Assembly: GCA_050108135.1 (NCBI GenBank)
Contig: JBNIDQ010000006.1
Coordinates: 80,758 to 144,757 of the forward strand
DNA length: 64,000 bases
Reading direction: 5' to 3'
From: Candidatus Bathyarchaeia archaeon
GTDB taxonomy: Archaea; Thermoproteota; Bathyarchaeia; Bathyarchaeales; Bathycorpusculaceae
The position numbers were made by a program, and so were the translations under genes. The notes beneath the pieces are model-generated. The model did not search any database. It worked only from the letters and a program-made list of their open reading frames with translations, and was not told the DNA's origin. Shown piece after piece: positions 6,452 through 51,643 of this stretch; the first letter of the stretch is position 1, and each line of letters opens with the position of its first letter.

Positions 6452-6475
6452 TTAGTCAAGGAAACTTGACGAAAA
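6452..6475 (+). promoter_or_regulatory. GTCAA-N6-TTGAC operator, copy 1, upstream of BRE/TATA
   Basis: TTAGTCAAGGAAACTTGACGAAAA followed by GACTTAAAAAG (TATA-like), about 40 bp upstream of the ATG at 6516. Confidence 0.75.
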
Positions 6476-6515
6476 GACTTAAAAAGTCTAGAAAATCTCC
6501 TCTTTTTGATAAAGT

Positions 6516-7388
6516 ATGAAGCAACGGAAACTGGCATTAGCTGCCATTTTAACGTTTGCAGTTTCAATGTTGGTTTTACTACAGGTTGTTGGTTTTGTCA
6601 ATTTAGCTGCTCAGACGAATTCAGCCGTAACTATCAGGCCTGACGGGAGCATAGAGGGAACAAGCCAAATCCAACGGCAAGAGGATACCTACACTTTGAT
6701 GGGTAACCTCTCATGCAGCATTTATGTTCAGAGAAGCGGTATTGTGATTGACGGAGCAGGCTACGCAATTAATGGAGGCGGTGAAGGAACCGGAATAGAC
6801 CTTAACAACTATCATGGAGTAGATTCTTCACGCGCTCAAATAACTAATGTGACGGTGAAGAACCTAAAGATCACAAATTTTGGTCATGCAGTAGAGTTCA
6901 TACCCTCGGTTAACAACACTTTCATCGGTAACTATGTGAAAGACTGCTACTGTGGCTTTTACATATGGCACTCTGCCAACAATACGCTAATACACAATAC
7001 AATCGAAAATTGCGTATCTGGAATCAGTATCAGCTTCGGAGGCAACGGCAACATCATCACGGAAAACAACATCTTAAACTCCAGCGTTTTTGTTATGAGG
7101 CAATGTCCAGATAACAAAGTTGACCGGAACTACTGGAGCAATTACACAACAAGGTATCCAAACGCCGAGGAAATAGAGGACACAGGCATATGGGATACGC
7201 CCTACGAAGGACATGAAGCCTTTACTGATAATCATCCTCTGGTTGAGATAATCAATATTGAAACGCCCTTACCACCAACAAATACGGGTAACCAAACCCT
7301 CGAAATCCAGTCCACATTATTCCTCGTGATAGCAGTGTCAGTATTGGCGGTTGTACTTTACTTTAGGAGAAAAACGCAAAAGGGATAG
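6516..7388 (+). CDS. NosD/CASH-type right-handed beta-helix surface protein
   Basis: Signal peptide, TIRPDGSIEG start, IVIDGAGYAI, Asn-rich coil repeats, NYWSNY...GIWDTPY motif, C-terminal TM plus basic tail. Confidence 0.85.
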   Translation: MKQRKLALAAILTFAVSMLVLLQVVGFVNLAAQTNSAVTIRPDGSIEGTSQIQRQEDTYTLMGNLSCSIYVQRSGIVIDGAGYAINGGGEGTGIDLNNYHGVDSSRAQITNVTVKNLKITNFGHAVEFIPSVNNTFIGNYVKDCYCGFYIWHSANNTLIHNTIENCVSGISISFGGNGNIITENNILNSSVFVMRQCPDNKVDRNYWSNYTTRYPNAEEIEDTGIWDTPYEGHEAFTDNHPLVEIINIETPLPPTNTGNQTLEIQSTLFLVIAVSVLAVVLYFRRKTQKG

Positions 7389-7393
7389 GAACT

Positions 7394-8512
7394 TTGATGA
7401 AAAAAGCAGTAGTATTGTTGCTTGTTTATATTTTGGCCGCAGTTTCCATTACAATTCTTCCCGAAAATGCATCGACTTCAGAAGCAACTGAAAATTCTTG
7501 GAGTACCAAAACACCATTGCCTGAGGTGGTAGGTGGCGTTAGGGCTGCTGTTGTAGATGGAAAGATACATGTTATTGGAGGCTCAATTCACTATGTTTAT
7601 GACCCAGCCAAGAACGATTGGACCGCCAAAAAGCCCCTGCCTACTGCAAGGCAATATTTCGGCATCGCTGTATGCCAGAATAAAATCTACGCAATAGGTG
7701 GAGGCTTGTGGAATTCTGACGTAGGGTGGGTTACGAGCAACGTGACCGAAGTCTATGATCCTATAACAGATAGCTGGGAAACCAAGACTGCTATGCCCAC
7801 CAGCCGAATGTCCCTATCGGCCAATGAGGTTGACGGAAAGATTTACCTAATCGGCGGACAAACGGGTGGCCCATCTTCGATCGTCGGTTTAAATGAAGTC
7901 TACGATGTTGCCAACGATTCTTGGACAATCAAGGAGCCAATTCATTATCCGGTTGATAGTTATGCGTCTGCTGTTGTTGACCACAAAATCTATGTTATAG
8001 GTGGGTTTGAGGGTTTGTATCATGGTGTTCCTGTCGGTTACACTCAGATTTATGACCCCCTGATAGATAGCTGGAGTCTTGGGGCTTCGCTTCCAGAAAT
8101 TGTGCGGAGTGCTGCTGCTGGAGCGACGACTGGAATATCAGCGCCAAAGAGAATTTATGTTGTCGGTGGAGCGCAGGATATGGTCGCCTGCAACTATACT
8201 CAAATTTATAATATCGATAATGACTCATGGATGTTAGGGGCTCAAATGCCGACCGCTCGTAGTTCACTATCAGTCGCAGTTGTTAATGATGTACTGTATG
8301 CAATTGGGGGCTCTCTTGGTCCTATGACCCCTTTCATGACAACAGTTGAACAGTACTTACCTTTCGGCTATAGCACCCCTGTGTCCTCAGTTTCCTCGGT
8401 TGATGGGAATGGGCTAACAGCGTCTAATGTTGTGCTAATTGTTGCTGTTTCTATCATCATTACCGTTGCTGGTGCTGGCTTGCTGATTTACTTGAAGAAA
8501 CGCAACGGTTGA
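7394..8512 (+). CDS. Kelch-repeat surface protein
   Basis: Repeated KIYxIGG...YDP..DSW kelch units, signal peptide, C-terminal TM plus KKR. Confidence 0.9.
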   Translation: MMKKAVVLLLVYILAAVSITILPENASTSEATENSWSTKTPLPEVVGGVRAAVVDGKIHVIGGSIHYVYDPAKNDWTAKKPLPTARQYFGIAVCQNKIYAIGGGLWNSDVGWVTSNVTEVYDPITDSWETKTAMPTSRMSLSANEVDGKIYLIGGQTGGPSSIVGLNEVYDVANDSWTIKEPIHYPVDSYASAVVDHKIYVIGGFEGLYHGVPVGYTQIYDPLIDSWSLGASLPEIVRSAAAGATTGISAPKRIYVVGGAQDMVACNYTQIYNIDNDSWMLGAQMPTARSSLSVAVVNDVLYAIGGSLGPMTPFMTTVEQYLPFGYSTPVSSVSSVDGNGLTASNVVLIVAVSIIITVAGAGLLIYLKKRNG

Positions 8513-8632
8513 CTTATTCACGTCGCCATAGCGTTCGAATATCTAACATTAATGCTTTCCCTTGACTTCTTGGCAGTTAATGTTTATTCTGAGATAGAGC
8601 ATGGTCAACACGCTTAATGCGTACCTGCTCAT

Positions 8633-9400
8633 TTGTCCAGCCATCTGATACTAATATCGTTTAGAATAGCTCAAAAAAGGGAAAAAGGATCAAAACTCAA
8701 GTACCGACATGTCCAAGAAGACCTAGAAAACAACCGCATACCAATTCACGTCCACGTTGAAGCAGAAATCACCAAGGGCAAATACCACGACTATGACACG
8801 TTCCTAGCCACAGAAGCCGTCCAATTCCTAAAGCTGTATCTTGAGCAACGCAAGAAGGGCACAAGACGAATTCCGTCCGAAATCTTAACCGAAGAATCAC
8901 CGCTATTCAGAGACGGAACCACAAGCACACCCAGAAGCATTGGCTCAAAGCAAATCCGCAAGCTAGTTCATGACCTCTACATTCAAGCGGGGCTTATCAA
9001 ACAGAAAAGAGGACGCATGTACGACCTAAGAGTTCACAGCTTACGCAAATACTTCAAGACGCAGATGCTAGCGCTCGGCGTTCAAGGAGACTACGTTGAC
9101 TACATGATGGGACATACAGTCGATACCTACCATGATATTCAAAGCCTCGGCATAGACAAACTCCGAAACGTCTACACGGCATCGGGTCTTTGCATAAGAC
9201 AAAAGACGCAGATTAACAAGCTTGAGACAGTTAAGGAAATGATACGGGCGCTAGGAATGAACCCGGACCAGCTACTAACTAAGGATGCATTAGCTGAAGG
9301 TGCAACAACCTACAAAGACCAAGGAGACTTAGAAAACCATCAACTTTCAGTGCTCAACAGTCAACTCAGGCAGTTAATTCACCAAGCGGCAACAGGATAA
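8633..9400 (+). pseudogene. Tyrosine recombinase/integrase, N-terminally truncated
   Basis: Retains ITKGK, HSLRKYF and YMMGH...Y motifs. Homology seems to begin at KLKYRHV, just after where the first catalytic Arg should be. No N-terminal domain is present. Confidence 0.8.
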
Positions 9401-9423
9401 ATTCGTGTCAGGGCTGTCGAATA

Positions 9424-9440
9424 CCAGCGGGCCCGCCACC
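9424..9440 (+). repeat. attR-like direct repeat
   Basis: CCAGCGGGCCCGCCACC, preceded by a degenerate T-loop (TCGAATA vs TCAAATC in the tRNA). Confidence 0.85.
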
Positions 9441-9460
9441 ACAATTCTAAACTGCCTTTT

Positions 9461-10114
9461 TTGTCAGGCGACACCATGAAAACTCCCAAGCTCACCGATA
9501 CCATGCTCAACCAGTTCCAATGCCCCACAGGCAAAATCGGCAAAACAATAGCTGCAAGAATGAACAAAGAACACGACCAACTAACCAATTGGGGCTTAAG
9601 CCACGTAAAAATAGAACCTGATTTTACTGTTCTGGACATAGGCGTCGGCGGAGGCAGAACTGTTGGCAAACTGGCCAGCCTTGCATTTAATGGTAAAGTT
9701 TTTGGCATCGACTATTCACGTGACATGGTCGATTTTTCCAAGGTACAGAATCAGCAGTTGGTGGCTGAAGGCAAAATACAGCTTGTCCAAGGCTCTGTTG
9801 ACGCCTTAAGCTTCCTTGGCGGTCAATTTGATTTGGTTACGGCGGTTGAAACCTGCTATTTCTGGCCTGACTTGCCCAAAGCTTTCAGAGAAGTAAACCG
9901 TGTTCTCAAGCAAGGAGGCAAACTGTTAATCATAAGCGAGATGACTAAAGACGGCAAATTCGAAGTTGAGCATGCTGAAATAATCGCCAAAACACATGTC
10001 AAACTTTACACGTTAACCGAACTGCAGGGTATGCTTGAAGCTGCAGGTTTCGGTGTTGAGGTTTCAAGAAAGCCTAATTCGTACTGGAATGTAATTGTTG
10101 CCCAAAAACGGTAA
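9461..10114 (+). CDS. Class I SAM-dependent methyltransferase
   Basis: VLDIGVGGG motif I, GIDYS motif II, FDLVTA and RVLKQGG motifs. Confidence 0.9.
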   Translation: MSGDTMKTPKLTDTMLNQFQCPTGKIGKTIAARMNKEHDQLTNWGLSHVKIEPDFTVLDIGVGGGRTVGKLASLAFNGKVFGIDYSRDMVDFSKVQNQQLVAEGKIQLVQGSVDALSFLGGQFDLVTAVETCYFWPDLPKAFREVNRVLKQGGKLLIISEMTKDGKFEVEHAEIIAKTHVKLYTLTELQGMLEAAGFGVEVSRKPNSYWNVIVAQKR

Positions 10115-10118
10115 ATTG

Positions 10119-12557
10119 CTATTTGGCGGTTTTGCTTCTTCTTTTTTTCTGCACTTTCTCTGACAACGAAACAAACATGTTGCCTATGGCAAGTGCAAAA
10201 GCAGGAAAAGCTGGTAGAATGTACCAGTACAGTTTAGTTTGCGCAAAAGTGAACAGTCCAAGCACGGTACTTATCCAGATGACAAGTAACGTGTCAGGTT
10301 TTGACCGTTTAACTGCCGCGTATAGGCTTAAACTGATGGCAAAGGGCAAGGCTGCTATCCAGACAGGATTTTCGCTAGTGAACAGGTATGTTAGGTAGTA
10401 CAGGACTCCTCCGCTGTGACCTTCGATTGGGTATGTTGCACGCATGAAACCGCTGTACCCGAAGTACCACATGCCGAAAGATGAGCCAAACTGTTGCAAC
10501 ATGTAGATTATCCATGGCAGAAAAACCAGTAGCCCAACACCCAAAAACAGCAAGAACCTTTTAGAAAACAGGAACCTAACACTGCGTTTAGTAACTACCA
10601 AATAAACTATCATAATCAACGGCAACAGTAACGCTTGAATCTGCTTAGTCATAAGGGCTAAACCAAAAAATGCCCCACCAATCACTGCATACCAATTTGA
10701 CCTTTTTCCAGTTTCGCTTGCAAGAATAAAGTATATTCCGGCAGTTATGAAGAAGAGTAACATTACGTCTGTCATGGCGTGTCTGGCAAAAATGAAAAAA
10801 GTAGCGAAAGTTCCCAGAACCATGGCGGCTGCAAAACCTGTTTTTTGGCTGTAAAGTTTTTTGCCCAAATAGTAAACCATAACCATTGAGAGCGCGGCAA
10901 AGATTGGGCTGATTAGTCTTGTGGAGAAGTTGCTGAACCCAAACAGTTGATACGACAATGACATTAGCCACATGTAAAGGGGTGGTTTGGCAATCCAGAA
11001 ATTGACTTCTCCAAAACACCAAGGAACCAAATAATCTCCAGACTTGCTCATGTGAAAACCCCACTGAGAATAAGTCTGCTCGTCAGCAACCCACAAAGCC
11101 CCGTTGCCTAAATACACAAAAAATGCGACAGAAAAAGCCAGAATCATCAAAATGTAGACCAAGTCTGTGTGAGCTTTAAGCCAAGACTGCTTGCCAACTA
11201 TGTTTGGCTGATTGCTTAGGCTGCTTTGACGGTTTCTGTAAGTAACAAGCAGCAATGTTGCGATTAATCCAGCAATCACCACAAACGCAATAACGTCAAA
11301 AACGACATTATTCAAATTCAGACTAGTGTCTTGCAGAAAAGTTGTACCTGAGTTTGTTAGTGCAAAAGCGTAAATTATGAAGTCATCTGAGCCAACGTAA
11401 AGCGTATTGTTCACGATTGTTGGTGAAGATTCCACAATCCCGCCTGTTTCATACCGCCATTTCTGCTCTCCTGTGAAGGCGTCAAAACAGTAGAGGCTTT
11501 GGTCCTCCGAACCCACGTACACGTTTGAGTTGGCAACAGCGGGAGACGAAACAATCCAGTAGCCTGTTTGGGCTTGCCAAACCAAGTCGCCGTTAACTGG
11601 GTCAAGGCAGTACAAGAAGCCATTGTATGAGCCAACATAAAGGTAACCGTAGGCTATGGCTGGTGAGGATTCTACTTGGCATTGGTCACCTGTTTGGTAC
11701 TGCCAAATTATGGCGCCGTCTGTTGCGTTTAGGCAGACAACGTATCCGTCAACGGAACCAACATACACTTTATCGTTAAATATGCATGGCGAAGACCGTA
11801 TGCTGCCAGTGTGTTTATTCCAAAGTTCCTCGCCATTTGAAGCATTAACTGCGCGGACAACAAAGTCATCACAAGCAAAATACACAACATCCCCCGAAAT
11901 GGCTGGTGAAGAATAAACTTGCTTATCGGTCGGGGCAACCCAAACAATTTCGCCGCTTGTTGCGTTTAGGCAGTAAAGTCCGCTGCTTCCTGAACCAATA
12001 TAGATTCTGCCGTCAACAAGCGTTGGCGAAGACCTTACGGAGCCACCAATTAGTGTTCTCCAAATAATGTCTCCGTCCGTAATGTTTAGGGCGTAAACGT
12101 AGCCGTCATCAACACCAACATAAACCCGTTCCTTGTCAATTGCTGGGGAAGACCAAACCTCCCAACCTAAACCGGTCCTCCAAACAGGCATGCCAGTTGA
12201 AATGTTAAGACAATACACGTTTTGGTCTCTGGAACCCACAAAAAGCAGCCCATCCTCTACTGCGGGTGAAGAGTAAACCGCACGGTATGTTGGATACCTC
12301 CAGAGCAATGTTGCAGAGTCAGTGGATTCTCTGTCGCTTGCAAAAGCTGTGTGGGTTTGGTCATGGCGGAACATTACCCACTCATTATAGTCGCTGTTGA
12401 CTGGTTTGGCTGTTGCTAAACAAGTGGTTTGAACAAGTAAAACAAGCAGGATTAACGTGATTGTTAGTACTGCTTGTTTGGGTTTGTTCATTGTTATCAT
12501 TACAGGCAAGCAAATGTATAGAAAGAATATAAAACCTACCAAAAACCCGCTCATCAA
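10119..12557 (-). CDS. PQQ/BamB-like beta-propeller fused to an ArnT/PMT_2-type (GT-C) glycosyltransferase
   Basis: N-half has many SSP-x-V...VYVGS.D..vYclnA.tG..vW repeats. C-half is polytopic with DE (WVADE), KPPLY, DxxLLFF, TK and WYILP motifs. Confidence 0.85.
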   Translation of the reverse strand: MMSGFLVGFIFFLYICLPVMITMNKPKQAVLTITLILLVLLVQTTCLATAKPVNSDYNEWVMFRHDQTHTAFASDRESTDSATLLWRYPTYRAVYSSPAVEDGLLFVGSRDQNVYCLNISTGMPVWRTGLGWEVWSSPAIDKERVYVGVDDGYVYALNITDGDIIWRTLIGGSVRSSPTLVDGRIYIGSGSSGLYCLNATSGEIVWVAPTDKQVYSSPAISGDVVYFACDDFVVRAVNASNGEELWNKHTGSIRSSPCIFNDKVYVGSVDGYVVCLNATDGAIIWQYQTGDQCQVESSPAIAYGYLYVGSYNGFLYCLDPVNGDLVWQAQTGYWIVSSPAVANSNVYVGSEDQSLYCFDAFTGEQKWRYETGGIVESSPTIVNNTLYVGSDDFIIYAFALTNSGTTFLQDTSLNLNNVVFDVIAFVVIAGLIATLLLVTYRNRQSSLSNQPNIVGKQSWLKAHTDLVYILMILAFSVAFFVYLGNGALWVADEQTYSQWGFHMSKSGDYLVPWCFGEVNFWIAKPPLYMWLMSLSYQLFGFSNFSTRLISPIFAALSMVMVYYLGKKLYSQKTGFAAAMVLGTFATFFIFARHAMTDVMLLFFITAGIYFILASETGKRSNWYAVIGGAFFGLALMTKQIQALLLPLIMIVYLVVTKRSVRFLFSKRFLLFLGVGLLVFLPWIIYMLQQFGSSFGMWYFGYSGFMRATYPIEGHSGGVLYYLTYLFTSENPVWIAALPFAISLSLYAAVKRSKPDTLLVIWISTVLGLFTFAQTKLYWYILPAFPAFALAIGNMFVSLSEKVQKKRRSKTAK

Positions 12558-12615
12558 CCTATTTGGAGCCTAATAGCAGCCTATTAGAGGTTGTATGCAA
12601 AAACCTATAGGGGGT
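12553..12615 (+). repeat. Dispersed intergenic repeat, copy 1
   Basis: ATCAACCTATTTGGAGCCTAATAG...GTATGCAAAAACCTATAGGGGGT. Confidence 0.8.
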
Positions 12616-12629
12616 CTATCAATTCCATA

Positions 12630-12770
12630 AGCCGGTGTGGCTGGTGAACCTCAAAAGTAAACACAACATCAGTCATAACAATACCCTACAATGTAGAATA
12701 CTGGGTTGCTGGTTTATTTGCAATTTGCCATCAACCAATCGGTTAAACGGCTAAATTTTTTTGAAAATAA
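12630..12770 (-). repeat. Ectopic copy of the GH57 gene 5' end and upstream region (original at 49926-50068)
   Basis: 12630-12734 matches 49926-50030 with 4 mismatches in 105 bp by manual alignment. It encodes MTDVVFTFEVHQPHRL, then runs into the repeat and stops (ORF 12605-12676). Confidence 0.9.
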
Positions 12771-12863
12771 CATGAAGAATGGGATGGTGCAATTTGTGCG
12801 GATGATGTTCGTTATCGGTCTGTTTGCACCGTTCGCTAAGCGGTCTGATGAAAAAATCAAAAT

Positions 12864-13814
12864 TTAAGGTTTACGATATCTTCGGCAGTAAAATACAGTT
12901 GATGTTATTCCGATTGCTGTTACCATTGAGACGCCTGCGATTACCGGTGTGAATGAAGACGGAGTTTCCGGTTCTTGTGTGGACTTTACAATCTCGTCTT
13001 TCTCAACGTCATAAGGATACGTGAGCGGGTAGTGATCTATGTTATTCTGGTCAATAACGTATGCTGTGTCGCCAATTCCCGAATTGCCGAGTTCAGAAGC
13101 GTTAGGATACTTTACCGTATAGTTACTCCAGTAATTACCAACAGAACCATTATCCCAAAAATTAGCAGTATTGACTATAAAAGATGCTGATACATTGTTA
13201 AGCAAAATATTATTCGCGGTAAATATATTTGAACCTGACCGAGAAGCGATATACATTTCAGAAATACTGCAGTTTGAGATATGGTTTCCACCACCCCACA
13301 AGGATATTTTTTTAATGCTACTTTCTATTACAGTATTATACTCACCGTTAACTCGAAGAGCGTTTTGGGTTGTTATGTTAGTGATAAAACAGTTTGAACT
13401 GGCCAAAAAAACGCTTGTTGGATTTTCACCAATTATTTCGAGATTTTTAACGGTCACATTAGTCACTTGTAATATCTCTAAGCCAGAATTATCAAAAGCA
13501 CCTAGTGCATTTATTGTATGTCCCCCACCGTCGAATAAGATGTTACTTCGGTCAATTCTGACACTATAATTTTCTATGTCGGCGGTTAATGTGTATATGT
13601 TTTCAGTTCGGTTTATCAGGCCAAGGGCTGGAGATTCTTCATGCGAAGGAGAAACTTGGTAAATTGTTATGCTACCATCGCTTTTTATTGTTAATTCTGG
13701 CAAATATTGACGATCAAGAGGACCTGCTGTTGCCAAATTAACAAACAAGAATCCACAAGTCAGCGAAAACAATAAAACTGAAATTAGAACAATAACTAAA
13801 ACTTTTTTTGCCAA
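12864..13814 (-). CDS. NosD/CASH-type beta-helix surface protein
   Basis: Signal peptide, TIKSDGSI, ILFDGGGHT, GNYWSNY...GIGDTAY...DHYPL motifs, C-terminal TM. Confidence 0.85.
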   Translation of the reverse strand: MAKKVLVIVLISVLLFSLTCGFLFVNLATAGPLDRQYLPELTIKSDGSITIYQVSPSHEESPALGLINRTENIYTLTADIENYSVRIDRSNILFDGGGHTINALGAFDNSGLEILQVTNVTVKNLEIIGENPTSVFLASSNCFITNITTQNALRVNGEYNTVIESSIKKISLWGGGNHISNCSISEMYIASRSGSNIFTANNILLNNVSASFIVNTANFWDNGSVGNYWSNYTVKYPNASELGNSGIGDTAYVIDQNNIDHYPLTYPYDVEKDEIVKSTQEPETPSSFTPVIAGVSMVTAIGITSTVFYCRRYRKP

Positions 13815-13866
13815 GTTTCATTGCCTCTGCATTAATTGGTTTTGGGGTAAAGAGTTTATAAAAGGG

Positions 13867-13890
13867 TTTTCGTCAAAGTTTCTTGACTAA
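13867..13890 (-). promoter_or_regulatory. GTCAA-N6-TTGAC operator, copy 2
   Basis: Minus strand reads TTAGTCAAGAAACTTTGACGAAAA then CCCTTTTATAAAC (TATA). Confidence 0.75.
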
Positions 13891-14000
13891 AGCTTTTTGG
13901 CTACAGATACGCTTTTAAATCTAATAAGAGGCTGTGAGAAACTGCAATTTTAATAAAATATTTTGTTTGATGTTGATTTTGTTTGGTTGTTTTGGTGTGA

Positions 14001-14109
14001 AAATTGTTTTTGTGGTTTGTTTGGGTGTTGGGTTTTTTGTGTGGAGTGTGAACTGGTTGGCGTAGGCACTGCTTTTTCGTTGCTTTACTTTTCATATCAA
14101 CCTATTAGG
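14001..14109. repeat. Conserved non-coding flank shared with 51807-51962
   Basis: 14001-14067 vs 51807-51873 are 65/67 identical; 14079-14109 vs 51932-51962 are 31/31 identical. Confidence 0.9.
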
Positions 14110-14151
14110 CTCCAAATAGGATATCATTGCAGAAACCTATAGGGGGTAGGT
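14096..14151 (+). repeat. Dispersed intergenic repeat, copy 2
   Basis: ATCAACCTATTAGGCTCCAAATAGG...TGCAGAAACCTATAGGGGGTAGGT. Confidence 0.85.
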
Positions 14152-14232
14152 CGTATTGGCGTTTTTTCAAGCCAAAAACATGTTGAAAAATGTTTTAAGA
14201 AAAAAATGAAGGGCTAAACTGCCCAAAATGGT

Positions 14233-14568
14233 TTACTTTAGTTTGTTAAAGAAGCAACTGTACTCGCCAGTGTGGCAAGCGTTGTCTTTCTGCTCAACCA
14301 CGTACAAGAGTGTGTCGTAGTCGCAGTCAGTTGAAACTGAAACAATCTTTTGCGTGTGACCGCTGGTTTCGCCTTTTACCCAGATTTCGTTTCGGCTGCG
14401 GCTCCAGTAGGTGGCTTTGCCGGTTTTGAGGGTTAGGTCAAGTGCTTCTTTGTTGGCGTATGCCAGCATCAAAACAGTTTTAGTGGTTACGTCTTGAACT
14501 ACGACTGGGATTAAGCCGTTGCCTTTAGCGAAGTCAAGTTTAGAGAGTAATTCTTCAGGTGTTGTCAT
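14233..14568 (-). CDS. hisI: Phosphoribosyl-AMP cyclohydrolase (monofunctional)
   Basis: YWSRSR...[15 protein letters not shown] and ACHTG..SCF motifs. Confidence 0.95.
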
Positions 14569-15368
14569 TGTCTTATTGTCACCCCCGCTTTACGAAGATA
14601 ATCCTTCACCATTGGGACAGGATACTTGTTATAGTGAAATACTGAAGCAGCCAACGCCGCATCCGCTTTGCCCGAAGTGAAGACGTCAACGAAGTGTTGA
14701 GGGACTCCAGCGCCTCCGCTCGCGATGACTGGAACGTGGACGCGTTCAGAGATAGCTCGGGTAAGTTCGATGTCGAAGCCGCTTTCTGTGCCGTCTTTGT
14801 CCATTGAGGTGACGAGGAATTCGCCTGCACCCAACTTTTCTGCTTGGAGTGCCCATGCTACTGCGTCGATGCCTGTTGGTTTTCTGCCGCCGTAAGTGTT
14901 AACTTCAAACCACACTGGTCCTTCACTTGTCTGCACCGTGATTTTTCCTTCAGCTGGGGTACGGTTGCGTTTAGCGTCAATAGCTACAACAACGCATTGT
15001 TGACCAAAAACGTCAGCCAACTCCGTGAGCACTTTGGGGTTTTCAACGGCTGCAGTGTTGACGGATACTTTGTCGGCTCCGCTGCATAGGACGTTTCTTG
15101 CGTCTGCCACGTTGCGGATTCCACCGCCTACAGTGAATGGTATGCTGATGGCTTTAGCGACGCCTTCCACGTATTGCCGCATGATGTCGCGTTTTTCGTG
15201 TGAAGCGGTGATGTCGAGAAAGACGAGTTCGTCGGCGCCTTCGTCGCTGTAACGTTTTGCCAATTCCACTGGGTCGCCTGCGTGTTTTAGTTCGAGAAAG
15301 TTGATGCCTTTGACTACTTTTCCGTGGTCAACATCAAGGCATGGAACGATACGTTTTGCAAGTGGCAC
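14565..15368 (-). CDS. hisF: Imidazole glycerol phosphate synthase, cyclase subunit
   Basis: [29 protein letters not shown] and ALAASVFH motifs. Confidence 0.97.
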
Positions 15369-15372
15369 AGTT

Positions 15373-16095: not shown

Positions 16096-16101
16096 CTTAG
16101 G

Positions 16102-16707: not shown

Positions 16708-16708
16708 T

Positions 16709-17284: not shown

Positions 17285-17286
17285 GT

Positions 17287-20948: not shown

Positions 20949-21515
20949 TTAAGCAGTGTTTTTTATTTCGAAAACAAGCGGCGGAACCGAATTTTTCGTT
21001 TCCAACTTGATTCCAAATAATCCTTCCATTATTCCTTCCCAAAGTGGCGCGTCATTAAGAAACGGTGTTTTAAGAAGCAGGTACTTGTCTTTAAGGTAGA
21101 AATCGCCAAAGCCTTGGACACGAAGCCTAGTGAAAACTGCTTCCCAATTCTCCTGTTTTGAAGAGTCAACGCCAAGGGTTGTTTCCATTGAGACTTTGAG
21201 GGCGTCTCCCATTTTTTTGCCTATGTCGTGCCATTTTTCTTTTGGAATGTTTTGGATTAGGATGTTGATTAATTCTACGTTGACAAAAGCGATTCTGCTG
21301 ATTCCGCAGTAGTATTCTCCTGGGAACCGCCAATCGTAAATCATCATGCTTCGGTAGATGTCAAGCATTTTGGAGATTAATGGTTTGATTCCTGGTTCTT
21401 TGCCGTCTCTGATTAGTTGGTCGATGAAGTCGCGTTCATCCTGTTCTAGGATGATTGTGGTTCTTTTGGCTTCTTCGCTTGCTGGCTGCTCTAGCTTTTT
21501 CTTGCTTGACTGCAT
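20949..21515 (-). CDS. Putative ribbon-helix-helix regulator with a C-terminal V4R-like domain
   Basis: N-terminal RTTIILEQDERDFIDQLI resembles an RHH beta-alpha-alpha unit. The C-terminal GKKMG...LRVQGFGDF pattern resembles V4R/4VR-type domains. Family assignment is pattern-based. Confidence 0.55.
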   Translation of the reverse strand: MQSSKKKLEQPASEEAKRTTIILEQDERDFIDQLIRDGKEPGIKPLISKMLDIYRSMMIYDWRFPGEYYCGISRIAFVNVELINILIQNIPKEKWHDIGKKMGDALKVSMETTLGVDSSKQENWEAVFTRLRVQGFGDFYLKDKYLLLKTPFLNDAPLWEGIMEGLFGIKLETKNSVPPLVFEIKNTA

Positions 21516-37357: not shown

Positions 37358-37446
37358 TCTCTTGATTTATCTAAAAGCTTCTTGAAACTTAAAAAATCGA
37401 GTTACTGTACAAACACAACAACTTGGTTTTAGAGCGGCATCAAAAA

Positions 37447-40719: not shown

Positions 40720-40806
40720 GCATGGATGGGTATGGGAAAATTAGTGTTTTTTTGTTTGACAGTTGATTGAGAAGACTTATTAGTTTGGCGCAGTCGGATT
40801 CTGACA

Positions 40807-41070: not shown

Positions 41071-41178
41071 CGCATACCAAGCAACCAACCTCTGTTTTCC
41101 CATTTACTAAACAAAACAATTTAATCCCTGCAAAACTCACTATTAACCTGTTTCTTTAACCAGAAGGTTTGATCACAT

Positions 41179-42564: not shown

Positions 42565-43918
42565 AAAAAATGAAATGTTAACATTAGCAGAAAAAACCGT
42601 TAAAGCTGCGGTTGTGAAAGGTGCCTCTGAAGCTGAAGCCTACGTTTACGAAGGACAGGCTTCCAACATCGGCATTGAACTTGGACAAGTAAACAAGACA
42701 AACCAAATTATCGACAGAGGCGTTGGCATCCGAGTCGTTGTTAACAAGGCAGTAGGATTTGCTTACACCAACATTGTAAATGACCCAAACGCTATAGAAA
42801 AAATCGTTGACAGCGCCTTGGGCGCGGCGAAAGCCAGCAAGCCTGACGCGGACTGGAAAGGCTTCACACAAAAGAAACCATACGTTTCCGTTTTGGATAA
42901 CACCTTTGACAGCAAAGTCTTGGAAATTGGCTCTGACGAATTAGTTAACATGTCTCAGACGATGATTGACTCTGCAAGCCAAGTTGACAAGAAAGTGTTG
43001 GCTGCTGAAGGCGGCATAGGGAACGCTTACATCGCCAACGCAGTCGCCAACTCAAACGGCGTCTTAGGTTTCGACAAGGGCACCGTTATCGAATGCAGCC
43101 TCGCCACGTTAGCCAAAGATGGCAACAAGGTCACGCCAATTTGTTTTGAGTTTAACGTTGCAAGAAACTACAAGATTGACCCAGCATGGGTTGGAAGAGA
43201 AGCCGCAAAACTTTCCGTTTCAGCACTAAAAACAAAACCAATAGAAACCAAAACCACTAAACTGATTTTGACACAGTTTGCCCTACAAGACCTGCTTGCC
43301 TACACACTGATTAACGCGGTAAGAGCTGATAGCGTGCAACGGGGGCAGTCACCGTTTAAGGGAAAAATCGGCGAAAAAGTTGCTTCAGAAAATCTCACCA
43401 TTTATGATGACGGCTTATACCCCGGCGGCATGAGAACATGGCTCTTTGACGGCGAAGGTGTACCCCACAGGAAAACCCCGATAATCGAGAAGGGTGTTCT
43501 TAAAAACTTCATTTACGACAATTACACTGCCAAAAAGGAAGGCAAAGAAAGCACAGGCAACGCTTCAAGAGCAGGCTACTTGTCCACGCCAGGCATTGAC
43601 ACAACAAACTTCCATATCCTGCCCGGAACAACTTCAGCGGATGACATGGTACGGCAGGTTGACGACGGTTTACTGGTCTATTACCTGCAAGGCGCCCACA
43701 GCAGCAACCCAGTCAGCGGCGAATTCTCAGTCGTAGCAACACCCGCATGGAAAATCAAAAAAGGCGAAATAGACCACGCTTCACGAGGCGTCATGCTTGC
43801 AGGCAACATTTTTGAAGTTCTAAAAAACATCACAGTTGTCGGCAGCAACGAGCGTCAAGTAGGCGGTTTGATTTCTCCTTGGATTGAAGTGGAAAATGTC
43901 CGAGTAATCGGCAAATAG
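42536..43918 (+). CDS. pmbA: PmbA/TldE subunit
   Basis: Adjacent to tldD, FDGEG motif, no HExx[10 protein letters not shown] and AGNIFEVL motifs. Confidence 0.9.
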
Positions 43919-43948
43919 TTTCCTCCACATTTTTAGAAAAATAAAGGG

Positions 43949-46063: not shown

Positions 46064-46275
46064 AAGCTCCGCTAAGAGAAGCTATCCTGTTAAGAACTCA
46101 AGCATCACTTTGTTTCTTTGAATTGTTAACAACTGGTGATGCAGTTTTTGAGTGCTTAAAACTTTGCTGGAACGGTGTACCCGTTTATCTTCATTTTAGC
46201 TAGTATTTGCTTAAAGTAAAAGAGGGATATAGTTCTTTTTACGAGCCAGAACTGCCTCCACTGAATGGGTAAAGG

Positions 46276-47484
46276 TTAAGCCCAAAAACTTTTCGAGTAC
46301 TCGCCCAACACGCCCTCGTAGATGCGTTTGGTTTGCTGAGCGATTTCTGCCCAATCATACTTCTCCAAAACTGTGCGGTAAGCGTTTTCACGGATTTTAG
46401 ATGCGTAAGCAGAGTCAAGTAGCAACTTGTTTATTCCCCAAGCCAATGATTCTGGATTGTTAGGGTAAACCTTCACGCCTGTAACGTCATGCTCAACGAT
46501 TTCTGAGAGACCGCCTGTGTCTGATACAACCACGGGGCTTTTAGCCGCCATCGCTTCTAACGCTACAATGCCAAAGGGTTCAAACAGGCTGGGCACAACG
46601 GAAACGTCCGCTACTTTTTGAAGTTTTATCAGGCTATCCTCATCCATGAAGCCTTCAAAATGCACTTTATGCTCTAACCCCATGCTGCGAACAATGTTTA
46701 ACAGTTGCTCTTTCATGTAGCCGCTGCCCACGATTATGAATTTGGCGTTAACTTTGCTTAAGATTTTAGGAACCGCATTAATTAGAATGTGAATACCCTT
46801 CTCGTACACTAGCCTGCCAACGTAAAGCACGATTTTTTCGTCTGGCAAAGCGAAACGGTTTCGGAAAGCTTTCATGTCGCTGTTGGCTTCGTCGTAACTT
46901 TTTGTGTTAACACCGTTTGGAACCATGACTAGTTTGTCACTGGGTAACCCGAAAGCCCACTTTACATGTTGAATCATGTAGTCACTGCAACAGATGACTT
47001 TCCATGCTTCATAGTTAAGCCAGGCTTCGGTTTCATGAATCATCTTCTCTGTTGTCGTGTGGGTGCCGTCACGGCGTCCCATTTCCGTGGAGTGCATGGT
47101 TACCAGCAGAGGTTTTCTGAAGATGTGTTTAAGCCCAATGCCCGCGTTTGCAACCAGCCAGTCGTGTGCGTGAAAAACGTCGATTTTGTCGCCGAGTTTG
47201 CGCATTATTGCCGCGGTTTCTTTTTGCATGTTTAGGTTCATCAGGTAAACCCAAGTGGCAAAATCTGGTGCTGGAGTCTTGTAGCTGTCCATGCGGTAAA
47301 CTTCTACGCCGTCAACTGTGGTTTCGTGTGCTGGGGCGCCTGGGAAATCGCAGGTTGCAACGTAAACTTTTACGCCTTGTTGGGCTAAGCTTTTGGATAG
47401 GTAGTAAATGTGTGGTGAAATGCCGCCGATTACTCTTGGCGGGTACTCCCACGTTAGCATCATAACGCTTAATTCGTGCTTCAA
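46276..47484 (-). CDS. GT4 glycosyltransferase
   Basis: WEYPP..IGG, HAHDW, VPNGV, VGRLVYEKG and EPFGIVALEAMA motifs. Confidence 0.95.
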   Translation of the reverse strand: MKHELSVMMLTWEYPPRVIGGISPHIYYLSKSLAQQGVKVYVATCDFPGAPAHETTVDGVEVYRMDSYKTPAPDFATWVYLMNLNMQKETAAIMRKLGDKIDVFHAHDWLVANAGIGLKHIFRKPLLVTMHSTEMGRRDGTHTTTEKMIHETEAWLNYEAWKVICCSDYMIQHVKWAFGLPSDKLVMVPNGVNTKSYDEANSDMKAFRNRFALPDEKIVLYVGRLVYEKGIHILINAVPKILSKVNAKFIIVGSGYMKEQLLNIVRSMGLEHKVHFEGFMDEDSLIKLQKVADVSVVPSLFEPFGIVALEAMAAKSPVVVSDTGGLSEIVEHDVTGVKVYPNNPESLAWGINKLLLDSAYASKIRENAYRTVLEKYDWAEIAQQTKRIYEGVLGEYSKSFWA

Positions 47485-47485
47485 G

Positions 47486-48100
47486 TTATGCGCCTCCTAC
47501 AGCATGATATGTTTTAAGAACGCTTTTCATCCACTTTTCAGGCTCAGTTGAGATAACACTGATTTTTTCTTTAGGCACATTATATATGCGGACGATTTCT
47601 TCTTTCATCCATTCCGATTTTACGTTGATACAGTTTGACTCGTAGCAGCCCAGCCACTCGATGCTTTTTATTGCCATGTTGTATGGCGAGTTTGAGGAAA
47701 GCGAGCGGTGGTCTTCTAAGCTTTCTACTGAGTAAACAAAGGGTATTCCAAGACCGTTTTTAAGGGCAACAGCGGCTGGAACAAAATGCCAATCAAACAC
47801 GTCTATTAAGTCAATTTTCTTTTTTGAATCATAATAAATGTTAGCGGCGGCTCGTTCTACTTCTTGATTGAGCGTTAGAACCCATGTTAGGACGCCGATG
47901 TGGGTTTTAACTGGGTTGGACACGCGGAAAGCCTTTACGCCTGAAGCTTCCAGAGTTTGACCTGTTAAATAATCGTGATATGTTACAACGTTTGTGTCGA
48001 TTTTGTTTTTTACAAGATTTGTAGATAGCGCGCTAACGTATTCAGCAAGTTTCCCTACAACCCTAGGCGGATACTCCCAAGAAAACAGTATTACGCGCAT
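47486..48100 (-). CDS. Stand-alone GT4 N-terminal domain protein
   Basis: WEYPP.VVG and DVFDW (HDW-like) motifs; paralogous to the N-half of the neighbour; no C-terminal donor-binding domain. Confidence 0.8.
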   Translation of the reverse strand: MRVILFSWEYPPRVVGKLAEYVSALSTNLVKNKIDTNVVTYHDYLTGQTLEASGVKAFRVSNPVKTHIGVLTWVLTLNQEVERAAANIYYDSKKKIDLIDVFDWHFVPAAVALKNGLGIPFVYSVESLEDHRSLSSNSPYNMAIKSIEWLGCYESNCINVKSEWMKEEIVRIYNVPKEKISVISTEPEKWMKSVLKTYHAVGGA

Positions 48101-48112
48101 GGTTTGGTCACT

Positions 48113-48364
48113 TTATGTAAAGAGTGAGCAGACTTTGATTATTCCTCTTCCGTTTAGGTAATAGCGTTTTTTGCCTTCGTTGTCAACAAAGCTTTCCGCG
48201 AAACCTTCAGACTTGTACTTGTCAAGGATGCTTTCAATCTCGTTAGGGTCTTTCTGCAGGATTCTTGCGACTTCGTCACTGCGCCTTGAAAGGTCAGCTG
48301 CGGTTGCACACAAGTTGTGGAGAGTCTGCAGAACCTTGTCTGGGAATGGAAGTTCTTCTCTCAT
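48113..48364 (-). CDS. Small winged-helix-like hypothetical protein
   Basis: 83 aa with the pattern ...EVARIL...EIESILDKY..EG......YYL...G. Confidence 0.6.
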   Translation of the reverse strand: MREELPFPDKVLQTLHNLCATAADLSRRSDEVARILQKDPNEIESILDKYKSEGFAESFVDNEGKKRYYLNGRGIIKVCSLFT

Positions 48365-48424
48365 AACGTGACCTCAAATTCACTTAAAATAAGGAAAAGG
48401 GGTTCTTATAAACACATGCGCGTG

Positions 48425-49972
48425 TTAGAATTGCCTGGTAGCTTCCTGAGCTTTGTCTGAAAGAGTTTTGTAACGGCTCTTTGCAGCAGCAACAAGTGCG
48501 CGTCTTAGGGTTTCTTTCTTTTTCTTTGAAGCAGCGGTTTCACGGATTTTTGCGGCTAACTCTTCATCTTTAAGGGAATATTTAATCCAGTTCTCAAAAT
48601 CGCCAGTGCCCACGTGATACTCAAGGGCTTCCGCATCCACTGTTTGAACGGCTTTAATGAATCCGTACAGGCTCCAAGCCATAACCCCTGTGTAGTATTC
48701 TTTGCCTGTGCCCGTGTAGAAAAGGAACGGTTCATTAGCAGTTAAAATCGCACCTCGCAGGCGTGATTCAAAATCGTTAAGCAGTGTTTGAGCAACCGCG
48801 AAAGCATCCATCGGCGACTCGTAAGGGCTAAAGTATGAATGAACTTCGCCTGGTCCTCCGCCTGCAGTGAACATGTAATATAGGTGGTCGCTTGTTTGGA
48901 AGTCTCGCCAAAGCCGCAGCCATTCAGGGTCTTCTGACTCTTTCGCTAAAGGTTCCAGTCGCCGCAGTGAAGTGTAATATGCCCACTGCATAACGTTGCC
49001 AAGCCAACCTGTCGAGTCACGTGCAACATCCGCCCAAGACACAGTAAATTCGGTTTCGGGAACATCAATCTCTCCTGCTGAAGCATGCCGGTCAACCGCC
49101 TCGCTTGGCGTAACCATTTTCAGGTTGTCGTATTCAAGCAGTTTTTCAGGCATGTGCCGCAAGAAATTGTGGATTCCCGTTTCTGGCCAATGGTGCTCCC
49201 CGAAAGTTTCGTAGTCGGGGAAGATGTTGATGACTTCGCCTTTTGTGCCTGCAAGCCAACTGGCGTATTTTTCGGAGGTTAAGGGCCAATCAGGCCACCA
49301 GCGTGCGCTGAAACGGAAACCAATATCGTCTGTTAATTTGTAGTTGCGAAGCAGCGTTCGGATTTTTTTGCAGCCTTTTGGCGTGTACAGGAAGTTGGGA
49401 GATTTTCCGCCGAGAATTTTTTCTACGCCTTCAGTGTAAATGCCCTTGTAACCCATTTCTTCAACGGTTTTGGCGATGGTGTTGTTGTAGAGCAATTCAG
49501 TGTTTTCAAAAACGCTTGGAGTATAGCCGAGTAGGTCTTGGATTAGTTGGCGGTGCATTTTTACTTGTTCAATGAATTCGGTTTTGTCAGGGTAAAGGCT
49601 GGCGATTGAGTGGTAATAGGTTTGGTCAAGAAACTCTACTTTGCCTGTTTTTGCAAGCTGCTTAAAGGTTTCAAGTAGGTCCTTGTCGAACATTTCGCAT
49701 TGTTCCAAAAACACGCCAGAGAGGCTGAAGGCAACTTTGACTGGTTTGCGTTCGTGACTGTGTCGGTCGATGAGGTCAAGCAGGATTTGGTTTGAAGGGA
49801 AATAGCATTTGCGGGCGGCACGCTTGAAAATTTCCCGGTCACCCTCGTTATCGAAGTAGTAATCGAAAAGTTCTTTTTTGGTTAAGCGTTTGAAGATTTT
49901 GCCTTCCCAAAACAAGCTTCGTCGTAGCCGATGCGGCTGGTGAACCTCAAAAGTAAACACGACATCAGTCAT
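48425..49972 (-). CDS. GH57 alpha-amylase-like glycoside hydrolase with a C-terminal DUF5752-like domain
   Basis: FEVHQP, TYYHS, ENTEL (nucleophile), DYETFGEH, SWAD and QTSDHLYYM motifs; C-terminal YHVGTGDFENWI. Confidence 0.92.
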   Translation of the reverse strand: MTDVVFTFEVHQPHRLRRSLFWEGKIFKRLTKKELFDYYFDNEGDREIFKRAARKCYFPSNQILLDLIDRHSHERKPVKVAFSLSGVFLEQCEMFDKDLLETFKQLAKTGKVEFLDQTYYHSIASLYPDKTEFIEQVKMHRQLIQDLLGYTPSVFENTELLYNNTIAKTVEEMGYKGIYTEGVEKILGGKSPNFLYTPKGCKKIRTLLRNYKLTDDIGFRFSARWWPDWPLTSEKYASWLAGTKGEVINIFPDYETFGEHHWPETGIHNFLRHMPEKLLEYDNLKMVTPSEAVDRHASAGEIDVPETEFTVSWADVARDSTGWLGNVMQWAYYTSLRRLEPLAKESEDPEWLRLWRDFQTSDHLYYMFTAGGGPGEVHSYFSPYESPMDAFAVAQTLLNDFESRLRGAILTANEPFLFYTGTGKEYYTGVMAWSLYGFIKAVQTVDAEALEYHVGTGDFENWIKYSLKDEELAAKIRETAASKKKKETLRRALVAAAKSRYKTLSDKAQEATRQF

Positions 49973-50085
49973 AACAATACCCTACAATGTAGAATACTGG
50001 GTTGCTGGTTTATTTGTAATTTGCCATCAAACAAACAAAGTTAACAGACTAAAATTCTTTGAAAATAAAAAAAGAAGAGGGCTGG

Positions 50086-50414
50086 TTATATCCAGTAGTG
50101 CGCAACAATGTTTGTGTTTGAATTTATCAGTCTACTATCACCGTTCCCTAAACCATCACTAAAATAGGAAAGCACCCAATAATCAAAAGGTGTCTGCACC
50201 GACACAGTATGATACCCAGCAGTCACACTAACAGGCCAAGACGCAGAATACGGAACACCATCAATATAAACCGTAGGACCCAACCACTGGTAAGAGTAAT
50301 CATCATACGCTGAAACAGTCAACGTATAAGAAGGCGGCGGCTGAGTCTGAATAGTTACACTTTTTGGACTTGATGAAAAAGGATTAATGAAAAGAGTTTA
50401 GACTTAAATTTCAT
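50086..50414 (-). pseudogene. Probable remnant of a secreted protein (frameshift or deletion)
   Basis: ATG at 50414 gives MKFKSKLFSLILF out of frame with a downstream PPPSYTLTVSAY...HYWI beta domain. The frames meet at a T5 run (50376-50380). Confidence 0.45.
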
Positions 50415-50522
50415 TACATAACTCACCAAAGCCAATCCTAATCTGTCATGAGTCATAATAGGCAGTATATATAATTTTGCAGATTCAGCCCTAAAAGATG
50501 GAAATTTAAGCAGAATAACTGC

Positions 50523-51578
50523 TCAATTTTTACAAAACTTTTTCAAAATAAAAAAAACGCTAAATAAACCAATTATAACACATAGCGATACAGCAATTAT
50601 GAGAAAACTGTTAAATTGATCAAAAAAGCCCGCATTATTGTTTTCAGGTATCAAGTACTTTGAGGGTTCAAAAGCAACATCATTTTTTTGTGAAAGAGGT
50701 GCTTGGTCAATCCCGCTGGCAGCATCTGCCGAATTATTGACAATATCTTTCCAAAGGTTGCTCCAAAAATTATTGATCACTGTGTTGTTTTCACTCCAAG
50801 CAAGCTCTGGGTCTCCGGAATACATAAGCCCTACTTGATTATCAATGAAGTTGTTGTTGAAAAATCGATTATTACAATTGTGACTTAAAAGGTCAACCGC
50901 AGCACCGCTACTGTTTTGGAAGTTGTTAAACAATACTTGAGAATTATTTAAGCTATAAAATCGGCCGCCGTTACAATAATTATTTGAAAAATTATTGTAG
51001 GCAAGCAAAAGATTGACAGAATCCCTCATAGTTAAGGCTGTGTCAAAATTATCGTTAAGTTGGTTTCCGATGATAAGGCAATCGATATTTCTGTAGGCCG
51101 TAATTGCTTGGAGGCCGCCAGCTAAATTGCAACTCATCACTTGAATGTTTGAACAGTTAACAAAACTAATTGCAACAAAAAAATGGCAAGCCGTGACATT
51201 TGTAATTATTATGTTGCTGGCGTTTGTTATTTGTATCAATGGCGCCGCTGTGAATTCAGGTTTCCAGTAACTAACACTTACGCTGGATGGCAAGGACATA
51301 GTGAACCCGCGTCCATCAAACACTATATCGTTTTTCTGAATTTCAAGGCTATAATTGAGGATATTTCCAGTCAAAAAAAATGTGTTGCCTGACCGCTGAA
51401 TTGGTAATGTTGACGGGCAAATTTCACCGTTACTTTTGATATAACCTTTTTCTGTTGGAACTATCTGAGGAATTATTGCGTTTGCATTTACCACAACAAT
51501 TGATTGAAAACAAATTGTACTAACCAAAAAAACACAGGATAAAAATAGCACAACTTTGTAAGTTTTCAATTTAATCAT
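50523..51578 (-). CDS. NosD/CASH-type beta-helix surface protein
   Basis: Signal peptide, YIKSNGEI..IQRSGN, IVFDGRGFT, Asn ladders, NNFWS and DQAPL motifs, C-terminal TM. Confidence 0.85.
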   Translation of the reverse strand: MIKLKTYKVVLFLSCVFLVSTICFQSIVVVNANAIIPQIVPTEKGYIKSNGEICPSTLPIQRSGNTFFLTGNILNYSLEIQKNDIVFDGRGFTMSLPSSVSVSYWKPEFTAAPLIQITNASNIIITNVTACHFFVAISFVNCSNIQVMSCNLAGGLQAITAYRNIDCLIIGNQLNDNFDTALTMRDSVNLLLAYNNFSNNYCNGGRFYSLNNSQVLFNNFQNSSGAAVDLLSHNCNNRFFNNNFIDNQVGLMYSGDPELAWSENNTVINNFWSNLWKDIVNNSADAASGIDQAPLSQKNDVAFEPSKYLIPENNNAGFFDQFNSFLIIAVSLCVIIGLFSVFFILKKFCKN

Positions 51579-51619
51579 AGCTAACCCTGTTGATTCTGGG
51601 ATATTTTATTTATTAAATT

Positions 51620-51643
51620 TTTTCGTCAAATTTTCTTGACTAA
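51620..51643 (-). promoter_or_regulatory. GTCAA-N6-TTGAC operator, copy 3
   Basis: Minus strand reads TTAGTCAAGAAAATTTGACGAAAA then AATTTAATAAAT (TATA-like). Confidence 0.75.

Follow-up and report, generated by a model that had tools for sequence, protein, structure and literature searches.

The window analyzed here is a 64,000-nucleotide stretch from contig C6 (JBNIDQ010000006.1) of a 2.68-Mb Bathyarchaeia genome (G000; 42% G+C), in which three genes for beta-helix surface proteins are each preceded by the same 24-bp promoter motif. We read this motif, with a probability of about 80%, as a transcription-factor operator built into the core promoter of a conserved cell-surface regulon, which takes in roughly 35 motif-bearing promoters in the genome. 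Because it stands before so many genes for exported surface proteins, the palindrome very probably serves an undescribed cell-envelope regulator as a binding site. An earlier note, made from the letters of the window alone, had proposed a palindromic operator and a regulon for a surface-protein family, and its claims are taken up below with the results that bear on them.

A search of the window with the degenerate 24-mer TTAGTCAAGRAAMYTTGACGAAAA, allowing up to 3 mismatches, returned exact matches at the three positions that the earlier note had given (Table 1; 0 expected) and no fourth copy, with 0 matches across 100 dinucleotide-preserving shuffles. A 24-nt position weight matrix (PWM) of 26.9 bits, derived from the motif copies, found nothing else in the window at ≥18 bits except opposite-strand readings of the three palindromes. 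A TATA-like box begins 2 to 3 nt past each 24-mer, and the start codon follows the end of the motif by 40, 52, and 41 nt (ATG at 6516, TTG at 13814, and ATG at 51578), in agreement with the claim that each copy stands shortly before a TATA-like box and 40 to 55 bp before a beta-helix gene. All three window promoters, like most beta-helix promoters of the genome, carry a single box. When blocks 12400-14400 and 49800-52300 were compared by blastn, only ~32 bp were common at the motif, in addition to separate segments farther off, and the three sites thus lie outside long duplications. A segment of 143 bp and 90% identity is duplicated at 12630-12770 and 49926-50068, downstream of target genes 2 and 3, and takes in the 5′ end of a GH57 gene (48425-49972); a 216-bp region upstream of promoters 2 and 3 is 69% identical. 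An RNA-element reading of the motif was dropped, since Rfam matches in the window are limited to two tRNAs, with none at the sites, and the sites lie upstream of the TATA boxes.

The anatomy of the motif was worked out from alignments of ~28 copies of G000 and 90 copies of relatives. The operator proper is a palindrome of 18 to 22 bp, TTAGTCAAG-N4-CTTGAC(TAA), with arms of 6 to 9 bp around an A/T-rich spacer of 4 nt that reads AAAC/AAAG or GTTT/ATTT, i.e., one A-tract in either orientation. The inverted repeat, previously given as GTCAA-N6-TTGAC, is therefore better written GTCAAG-N4-CTTGAC. Position 14 of the motif is C in 62 of the relatives' 90 copies. Copies away from promoters are symmetric to the end (…CTTGACTAA), while promoter-proximal copies terminate in …CTTGAC-GA(A/G)AA. 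Upstream regions of 41 tRNA genes of the same genome have the core promoter (c)GAAAAnc followed by TTTAAA/TTTATA, and because they show the same GAAAA element, the last five bases of the 24-mer can be assigned to the transcription factor B (TFB) recognition element (BRE). The palindromic operator of the earlier note is thus upheld as a real cis-regulatory palindrome directly upstream of BRE and TATA, except for its final five to six bases, which belong to a generic BRE and not to the operator.

The proximal arm of the palindrome ends at the G of GAAAA, so that the operator abuts the BRE without overlap. Across the 90 related promoters, the TATA box falls in a fixed +3/+4 register after the motif (positions 28 to 33), the composition behind the motif is N-N-C-T-T-(T/A)-T-A-(A/T) at fixed positions, and the start codon follows at a median of 41 nt. 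These fixed positions make operator, BRE, and TATA one rigid module. Fully symmetric operator copies detached from any BRE also exist, as distal members of tandem pairs and in divergent intergenic regions, and tandem boxes 24 bp apart occur at the promoters of one target family (family 2, below) and of the candidate regulator A1. The operator is a symmetric recognition site of the kind fit for a dimeric helix-turn-helix (HTH) protein and lies immediately upstream of BRE and TATA, over neither the TATA box nor the start site. Its half-site centers are about one helical turn apart, a spacing that, as read from the sequence, suits a winged-helix dimer or a multi-winged-helix protein.

Genome wide, the PWM gave 60 matches at ≥16 bits compared with 1 in the reversed genome, which served as control, and at ≥19 bits the matches led to 37 distinct downstream open reading frames (ORFs). 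ORFs were called crudely (2,711 in the genome) and signal peptides by a hydrophobicity rule; on this basis, 33 of the 37 had a signal-peptide-like N terminus, compared with 24% of all ORFs (hypergeometric P = 4.6e-17), and most targets also had a C-terminal membrane anchor with a basic tail. A site was found before 21 of 142 ORFs with both a signal peptide and a C-terminal anchor, 10 of 236 with a signal peptide or N-terminal anchor only, 2 of 324 polytopic membrane proteins, and 1 of 1,898 ORFs lacking an N-terminal hydrophobic segment, that one being a spurious overlapping ORF. The class with signal peptide and C-terminal anchor therefore stands out against all others (odds ratio of 33; P = 3.6e-19). 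The genome-wide scan, a check set beforehand, thus found matches that are nonrandom with respect to both gene class and TATA position. By the same scan, the claim that the motif precedes no other gene holds inside the window (at ≥18 bits) and fails for the genome, given its ~35 promoters.

The targets fall into three groups. The first is the beta-helix family, with ~15 members, and the second is an unrelated family of seven proteins of ~260 to 300 amino acids (aa) without a Pfam domain, whose operator is the variant TTAGTAAAG-N4-CTTTAC, usually in tandem with a second box 24 bp upstream. The third comprises about ten more unrelated proteins, mostly without a Pfam match, apart from weak matches to an Ig-like domain in one of them and to DUF420 in another. 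Fifteen of the 30 beta-helix paralogs lack a site; membership in the regulon is set by export or surface location and not by the NosD-like fold. The proposal of a surface-protein regulon is accordingly sustained, but it is not specific to NosD-type proteins, since several unrelated exported families are included and half of the beta-helix paralogs are not. The beta-helix paralogs are only 25 to 35% identical, yet the operator core before them is near invariant, and the flanks are not conserved, which, together with the unrelated target families, points to selection acting on the site as such.

Two putative targets were unconvincing and were set aside: an AbrB-like ORF at C7:10964, whose site is weak (20 bits), and a 105-aa ORF behind a tandem site at C19:134443. 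At the latter locus (C19:134417-134466), the tandem operator and a good TATA box (CCCTTTTTACAA) have no credible gene behind them; downstream are convergent genes of the opposite strand, encoding a 61-aa XRE-type HTH protein and small membrane proteins. This tandem may be an orphan promoter, the promoter of an antisense transcript, or a remnant. An identical operator with at least 100 bp of identical flanks was also seen at the end of C6 (C6:375076-375099) and the start of C7 (C7:86-109), probably an assembly overlap that joins the two contigs.

The module extends beyond G000. Of 24 other species in the genus, 19 have the motif pattern, as does one genome from a different family of the order, whereas 15 genomes from other families lack it. 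Searched in reverse as a control, the pattern had 0 matches in 41 related genomes, which are nonindependent samples. An exact-pattern scan over 185,579 species genomes matched at least 111 stretches, almost all from Candidatus Bathyarchaeota/Bathyarchaeia metagenome-assembled genomes (MAGs), including Bathy-6. Among the matches listed, 90 of 99 downstream ORFs had signal-peptide-like N termini and 66 of 99 were homologs of G000 targets, with 12 of these motif-bearing genes of other Bathyarchaeia MAGs homologous to window gene 1 and 14 to the C21:45985 gene. Gene-site pairs are thus kept across species and flanks are not, which favors a function of the motif over a duplication relic or a recombination site. 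Operator-bearing contigs, again with the operator before signal-peptide genes, were also seen in MAGs labeled Anaerolineaceae, Verrucomicrobia, Bacteroidales, Muribaculaceae, Acidobacteria, and Methanocella (loci L009, L011, L017, L023, L027, L032, L034, L069, L070, L076, and L079); these are most likely misbinned Bathyarchaeia contigs.

One nonexported gene recurs behind the motif in relatives. It encodes a protein of ~325 aa (the A family) whose N terminus carries an invariant C-x2-C-x7-C-x3-C motif and whose winged-helix domains number three (HTH_45, ArsR/HTH_5, and TrmB-like), and relatives were gathered in three independent ways that included metagenome loci, contig lookups, and motif-selected loci. 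G000 has two copies, A1 (C23:34636-35604) and A2 (on C6). A tandem operator precedes A1 at C23:34428-34475, flush with CCCTTTTTACAC and ~160 nt before the ATG, and a tandem operator plus TATA box stands 150 to 190 nt upstream in 10 of 10 A1-clade genes (G000, L115-L119, and L195-L198); the nine genes from outside G000 (five metagenome loci and four contig lookups) are orthologs with 63 to 74% identity. Four distant A-family genes of other genera, all from motif-selected loci (L048, L049, L105, and L108), have the operator 93 to 120 nt upstream. An AlphaFold model of A1 (predicted local distance difference test score of 79) confirmed the three winged helices. A Foldseek search with this model returned single-domain MarR/ArsR matches only (best E = 0.08; no whole-chain match), and comparisons with PDB sequences and NCBIfam gave single winged-helix likenesses and no characterized relative, with NCBIfam scores far under the cutoffs. 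The Cys4 motif hints at metal or redox sensing. Across species, the A1 leader of ~125 to 160 nt (C23:34476-34635; L115-L119 and L195-L198) shows nucleotide-level conservation (…GATGAGAAAAATGTATGTCT…CAGTTTCTCTCTCAGCATG…TTAGT…), and it may encode a leader peptide or act as an RNA element.

The paralog A2, which is widely conserved, has no A1-type operator in G000, and A2-type loci likewise have none. In ~50 distinct A2 loci with sufficient upstream sequence, a conserved pair of palindromes, TTATTTAAATATGACGCnTGTCATAnnnnTATGACGCGTGTCATGACGG, lies immediately downstream of the gene's own TATA box. The A2 palindrome, GTCATA-N4-TATGAC, has the same 6+4+6 geometry as the operator, and its arms differ from those of the operator at two positions. 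The full promoter (C6, ~308,570-308,700; L120-L194) is strongly conserved and reads GGGGAAAAC-TTATTTAAATA, followed by ATGACGCnTGTCATA-N4-TATGACGCGTGTCATGACGG. Since these palindromes lie over the expected start site, they look like an autorepression operator. In a tree of the family, the A1 clade is all GTCAAG and the A2 clade all GTCAT, while L105 and L108 are placed beside A2 yet have GTCAAG. A scan of 308 kb around metagenomic A2-type genes found no operator at ≥20 bits, a result that is uninformative because the loci are syntenic.

We rank A1, a cytoplasmic Cys4 triple-winged-helix protein, first among candidate binders, at slightly less than even odds, because palindromes of one geometry at the family members' own promoters resemble the pattern of autoregulated paralogous factors. 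Three points weigh against this choice. The A1 promoter sites in G000 are degenerate (18.6 and 16.5 bits) with the gene start ~160 nt downstream, the A-family genes that carry the motif do not clearly form a single clade, and A1 could be merely another target of the regulon. The regulators suggested in the earlier note, both encoded in the window, were rejected: the TrmB protein (55290-56057) has its nearest site 3.6 kb away and no PWM match of ≥12 bits at its promoter, and the ribbon-helix-helix ORF (20949-21515) has no site nearby and no Pfam match. Neither has any other link to the motif, and the two better candidates lie outside the window.

The second of these candidates is TF-B (C9:83228-84508), which has an ArsR-type winged helix matching HTH_5/DUF7347, one transmembrane helix, and an outside domain of ~300 aa. 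It is possible, at lower odds than for A1, that this membrane-anchored one-component regulator is the binder and A1 simply a target; TF-B would then be analogous to ArnR/ArnR1 of Sulfolobus, sensing the envelope and controlling surface-protein genes. The boxes of ArnR at flaB of S. acidocaldarius, TCGAC-N5-GTCGA, are also two inverted repeats before a surface-structure gene, at −43 to −84, both of which are required, and they are activating (PMC6396743). TF-B of G000 is encoded divergently from a promoter with the motif, whose site lies 129 nt upstream, and in three of four TF-B orthologs (L199-L201, out of L199-L202, which were picked without regard to the motif) two palindromes lie in the intergenic region shared with a divergent beta-helix or secreted gene, which also counts against A1. 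A more distant ortholog, L111, has a canonical operator-BRE-TATA module 60 nt upstream. The outside domain is paralogous to secreted members of the regulon, such as C13:46186, and hints at envelope sensing.

Several observations speak against TF-B as the binder. The strong site in G000, L052, and L199-L201 is in register with the BRE and TATA of the divergent gene and not with the TATA box of TF-B (CAAGTTTTATACA); in L202, where DtxR/FeoB genes have replaced the divergent neighbor, the palindromes are gone; and a TF-B paralog on C4 of G000 has no palindrome. Being membrane anchored and having an outside domain, TF-B is itself like the proteins of the target class, and a site near it is therefore expected even if it is not the binder. 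The sister palindrome at the A2 promoters also has no explanation if TF-B is the binder. TF-B is nonetheless a serious second candidate, and the divergent regulator-target layout is classic. The paralogs of its outside domain are stand-alone secreted proteins (C13:45201-46186, C19:155456-156277, and C4:30790-31611), at least one of which (C13:46186) is a direct motif target, and two stand just downstream of motif targets. Its neighborhood is conserved (L199, L200, L202, and C9 of G000), with TF-B, a convergent S-adenosylmethionine (SAM) methyltransferase, and NucS, and in L200 its divergent partner is a beta-helix and Kelch pair, as in operon 1 of the window.

In the mechanism that we propose, with A1 as the preferred binder, a symmetric winged-helix factor would occupy ~20 bp ending at the BRE, with a predicted footprint from about −38 to −58, assuming a transcription start ~25 nt past the TATA box. 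The factor would sit beside TFB and the TATA-binding protein (TBP), contact them, and help them bind. By analogy with known factors, activation is somewhat favored over repression because the invariant distance suits stereospecific contact and because TrmBL1 upstream sites and the ArnR boxes at flaB activate. For TrmBL1, in vitro transcription gave activation from sites upstream of BRE/TATA and repression from sites downstream (PMC4706686).

A repressor seated flush with the BRE, which would block TFB and TBP and keep strong surface-protein promoters off until a signal arrives, is less probable, at perhaps half the odds of an activator, and several findings weigh on its side and against activation. 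The BRE (CGAAAA) and TATA (TTTTAT/TTTAAT) elements resemble those of tRNA promoters and look as good, whereas recruited promoters, such as those of TFB-RF1 and Ptr2, have weak core elements; core elements that match the housekeeping consensus should need no help, which weakens the activator reading. Furthermore, both candidates come closest, in fold and in sequence, to winged-helix proteins of the ArsR/MarR type, most of which are repressors, and the A2 palindromes, downstream of TATA, are in a typical repressor position. Nevertheless, the operator never lies over the TATA box or start site and is always upstream at one fixed distance, as in TrmBL1 activation, TFB-RF1, and EarA, while repressor sites usually vary more in placement.

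Two readings without a dedicated regulator fare much worse. Many archaea have several TFB and TBP paralogs, and an extended promoter element read by an alternative paralog at secretome promoters would account for the fixed register with BRE and TATA; this is improbable, however, since the two-fold symmetry and the spacer in either orientation indicate reading by a symmetric dimer and not by TFB, and fully symmetric copies exist apart from any BRE. Least probable of all is that the 24-mer is a duplication relic, or a recombination or phase-variation site of surface genes with no role in transcription: many targets are paralogous, the 8- to 9-bp arms around a short spacer resemble tyrosine-recombinase core sites, and an integrase remnant lies at 8633-9400, but the core is conserved, without its flanks, at proteins of 25 to 35% identity and at unrelated families, the same gene-site pairs persist across species, spacers that vary among sites would block strand exchange, no inverted site pairs bracket a promoter, and a strict BRE/TATA register would be meaningless for recombination.

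As a kind, this factor-operator regulon is ordinary and belongs to the archaeal "upstream of BRE" type. TrmBL1 (PMC4706686), TFB-RF1 of Pyrococcus furiosus (PMC5937170), Ptr2 of Methanocaldococcus jannaschii, and EarA (PMC10665913) likewise use a short palindromic or repeated HTH site directly upstream of the BRE. The present system has a different sequence (GTCAAG-N4-CTTGAC compared with, e.g., TATCAC-N5-GTGATA), a far larger regulon that is united by export of its products instead of a metabolic pathway, and a core promoter with no visible weakness; its candidates are not TrmB, Lrp, or TFB-RF1 orthologs, and the whole is a prediction from sequence. ArnR/ArnR1 shares with it inverted repeats upstream of BRE/TATA of surface-structure genes, TF-B has the same layout of N-terminal HTH plus membrane segment (layout alone was compared), and many promoters here have two boxes 24 bp apart, a likeness to flaB that the single-boxed promoters of the window and most beta-helix promoters do not share. 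The differences from ArnR lie in the operator sequence and its spacing, in the three window promoters being single boxed and flush with the BRE, and in ~35 targets compared with a few pilus and archaellum promoters; the cytoplasmic candidate A1 also fits at least as well. With ArsR/SmtB- and MarR-type regulators, the likeness is that both candidates have ArsR-type winged helices and that an operator at the own promoter is a classic autoregulation pattern, but A1 unites three winged-helix domains and a Cys4 motif in one chain. The regulon resembles the Ptr2, TFB-RF1, TrmBL1-upstream, EarA, and ArnR arrangements, but its sequence is different from theirs and so, as far as was compared, is its regulator family.

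The target genes of the window are listed with their promoters in Table 1. Each of the three beta-helix proteins begins with a signal peptide and ends in a hydrophobic anchor and basic tail, and they are recognizable paralogs with ~23 to 31% mutual identity (blastp). Genes 1 and 3 pass the Pfam NosD/Beta_helix models; gene 2 has no Pfam match and only a weak NCBIfam NosD match. Scores of genes 1 to 3 for TIGR04247 (NosD_copper_fam) are 35.4, 22.8, and 24.2 bits, far below the cutoff of 300, so that the term "NosD-type" of the earlier note is apt for beta-helix surface proteins and not for true NosD.

Table 1. Operator sites, TATA boxes, and target genes in the window
Feature	Positions	Strand	Description	Basis
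Site 1	6452-6475	+	Operator TTAGTCAAG-GAAA-CTTGAC (6452-6470) and BRE-like GAAAA (6471-6475)	Exact match; PWM 35.1 bits
TATA-like box, promoter 1	6478-6485	+	CTTAAAAA	Sequence reading
Target operon 1	6516-8512	+	Beta-helix protein (6516-7388), then after 5 nt Kelch-repeat protein (7394-8512)	Pfam
Target gene 2	12864-13814	-	316-aa beta-helix-family surface protein, TTG start	Paralogy, hydrophobic segments
TATA box, promoter 2	13856-13863	-	TTTTATAA	Sequence reading
Site 2	13867-13890	-	Operator TTAGTCAAG-AAAC-TTTGAC and BRE GAAAA	Exact match; PWM 35.6 bits
Target gene 3	50523-51578	-	351-aa beta-helix surface protein	Pfam NosD/Beta_helix
TATA-like box, promoter 3	51609-51617	-	TTTAATAAA	Sequence reading
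Site 3	51620-51643	-	Operator TTAGTCAAG-AAAA-TTTGAC and BRE GAAAA	Exact match; PWM 34.5 bits

A paralog of gene 2 at C4:33041 of G000 is 73% identical and has an identical operator. In gene 2, the ATG that matches the paralog's start (MKLGKK…) is at 13821 (minus strand) but in another frame than the signal peptide, and translation from it would stop after 27 codons; only from the TTG at 13814, immediately before a run of seven A's, is the right frame regained. This oddity could be due to use of a TTG start, a slip-prone homopolymer, or an assembly error. Target operon 1 has a tRNA gene just upstream (5617-5692) and, just downstream of the Kelch gene, a truncated tyrosine-integrase ORF (8633-9400; weak Phage_integrase match). 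Given this pair of neighbors, the operon may be located on an old integrated element.

Searches of the full-text literature for the sequence and for Bathyarchaeia promoter motifs or regulons found no description of the operator or the regulon, in line with the earlier note's "undescribed." What is new here is the separation of the operator from the BRE, a target class quantified for the complete regulon, an A-family candidate with a sister operator, and an unbiased look at a membrane-anchored candidate. A more far-reaching picture, which we offer tentatively and consider doubtful as a whole, is that Bathyarchaeia reserve a class of promoters for their exported surface proteome. One BRE/TATA-fused operator would switch ~35 unrelated genes together by way of a novel type of Cys4 triple-winged-helix regulator, possibly metal or redox sensing, that is autoregulated by a tandem operator and belongs to a family diversified by two half-site bases (GTCAAG compared with GTCATA), perhaps alongside a membrane-tethered sensor whose outside domain is a paralog of the secreted targets.

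Bathyarchaeia are among the most abundant archaea of sediments and soils and are essentially uncultured, and we know of no experimental work on their gene control. The analysis supplies a sharply defined operator with a fixed promoter architecture, ~35 surface-protein targets per genome, and two candidate binders. The paired operators of A1 and A2 would be a clean case of codivergence between an archaeal transcription factor and its site. The operator also marks a presumably coregulated subset of anonymous exported proteins, which, being coregulated, would probably act together in envelope building or substrate attachment.

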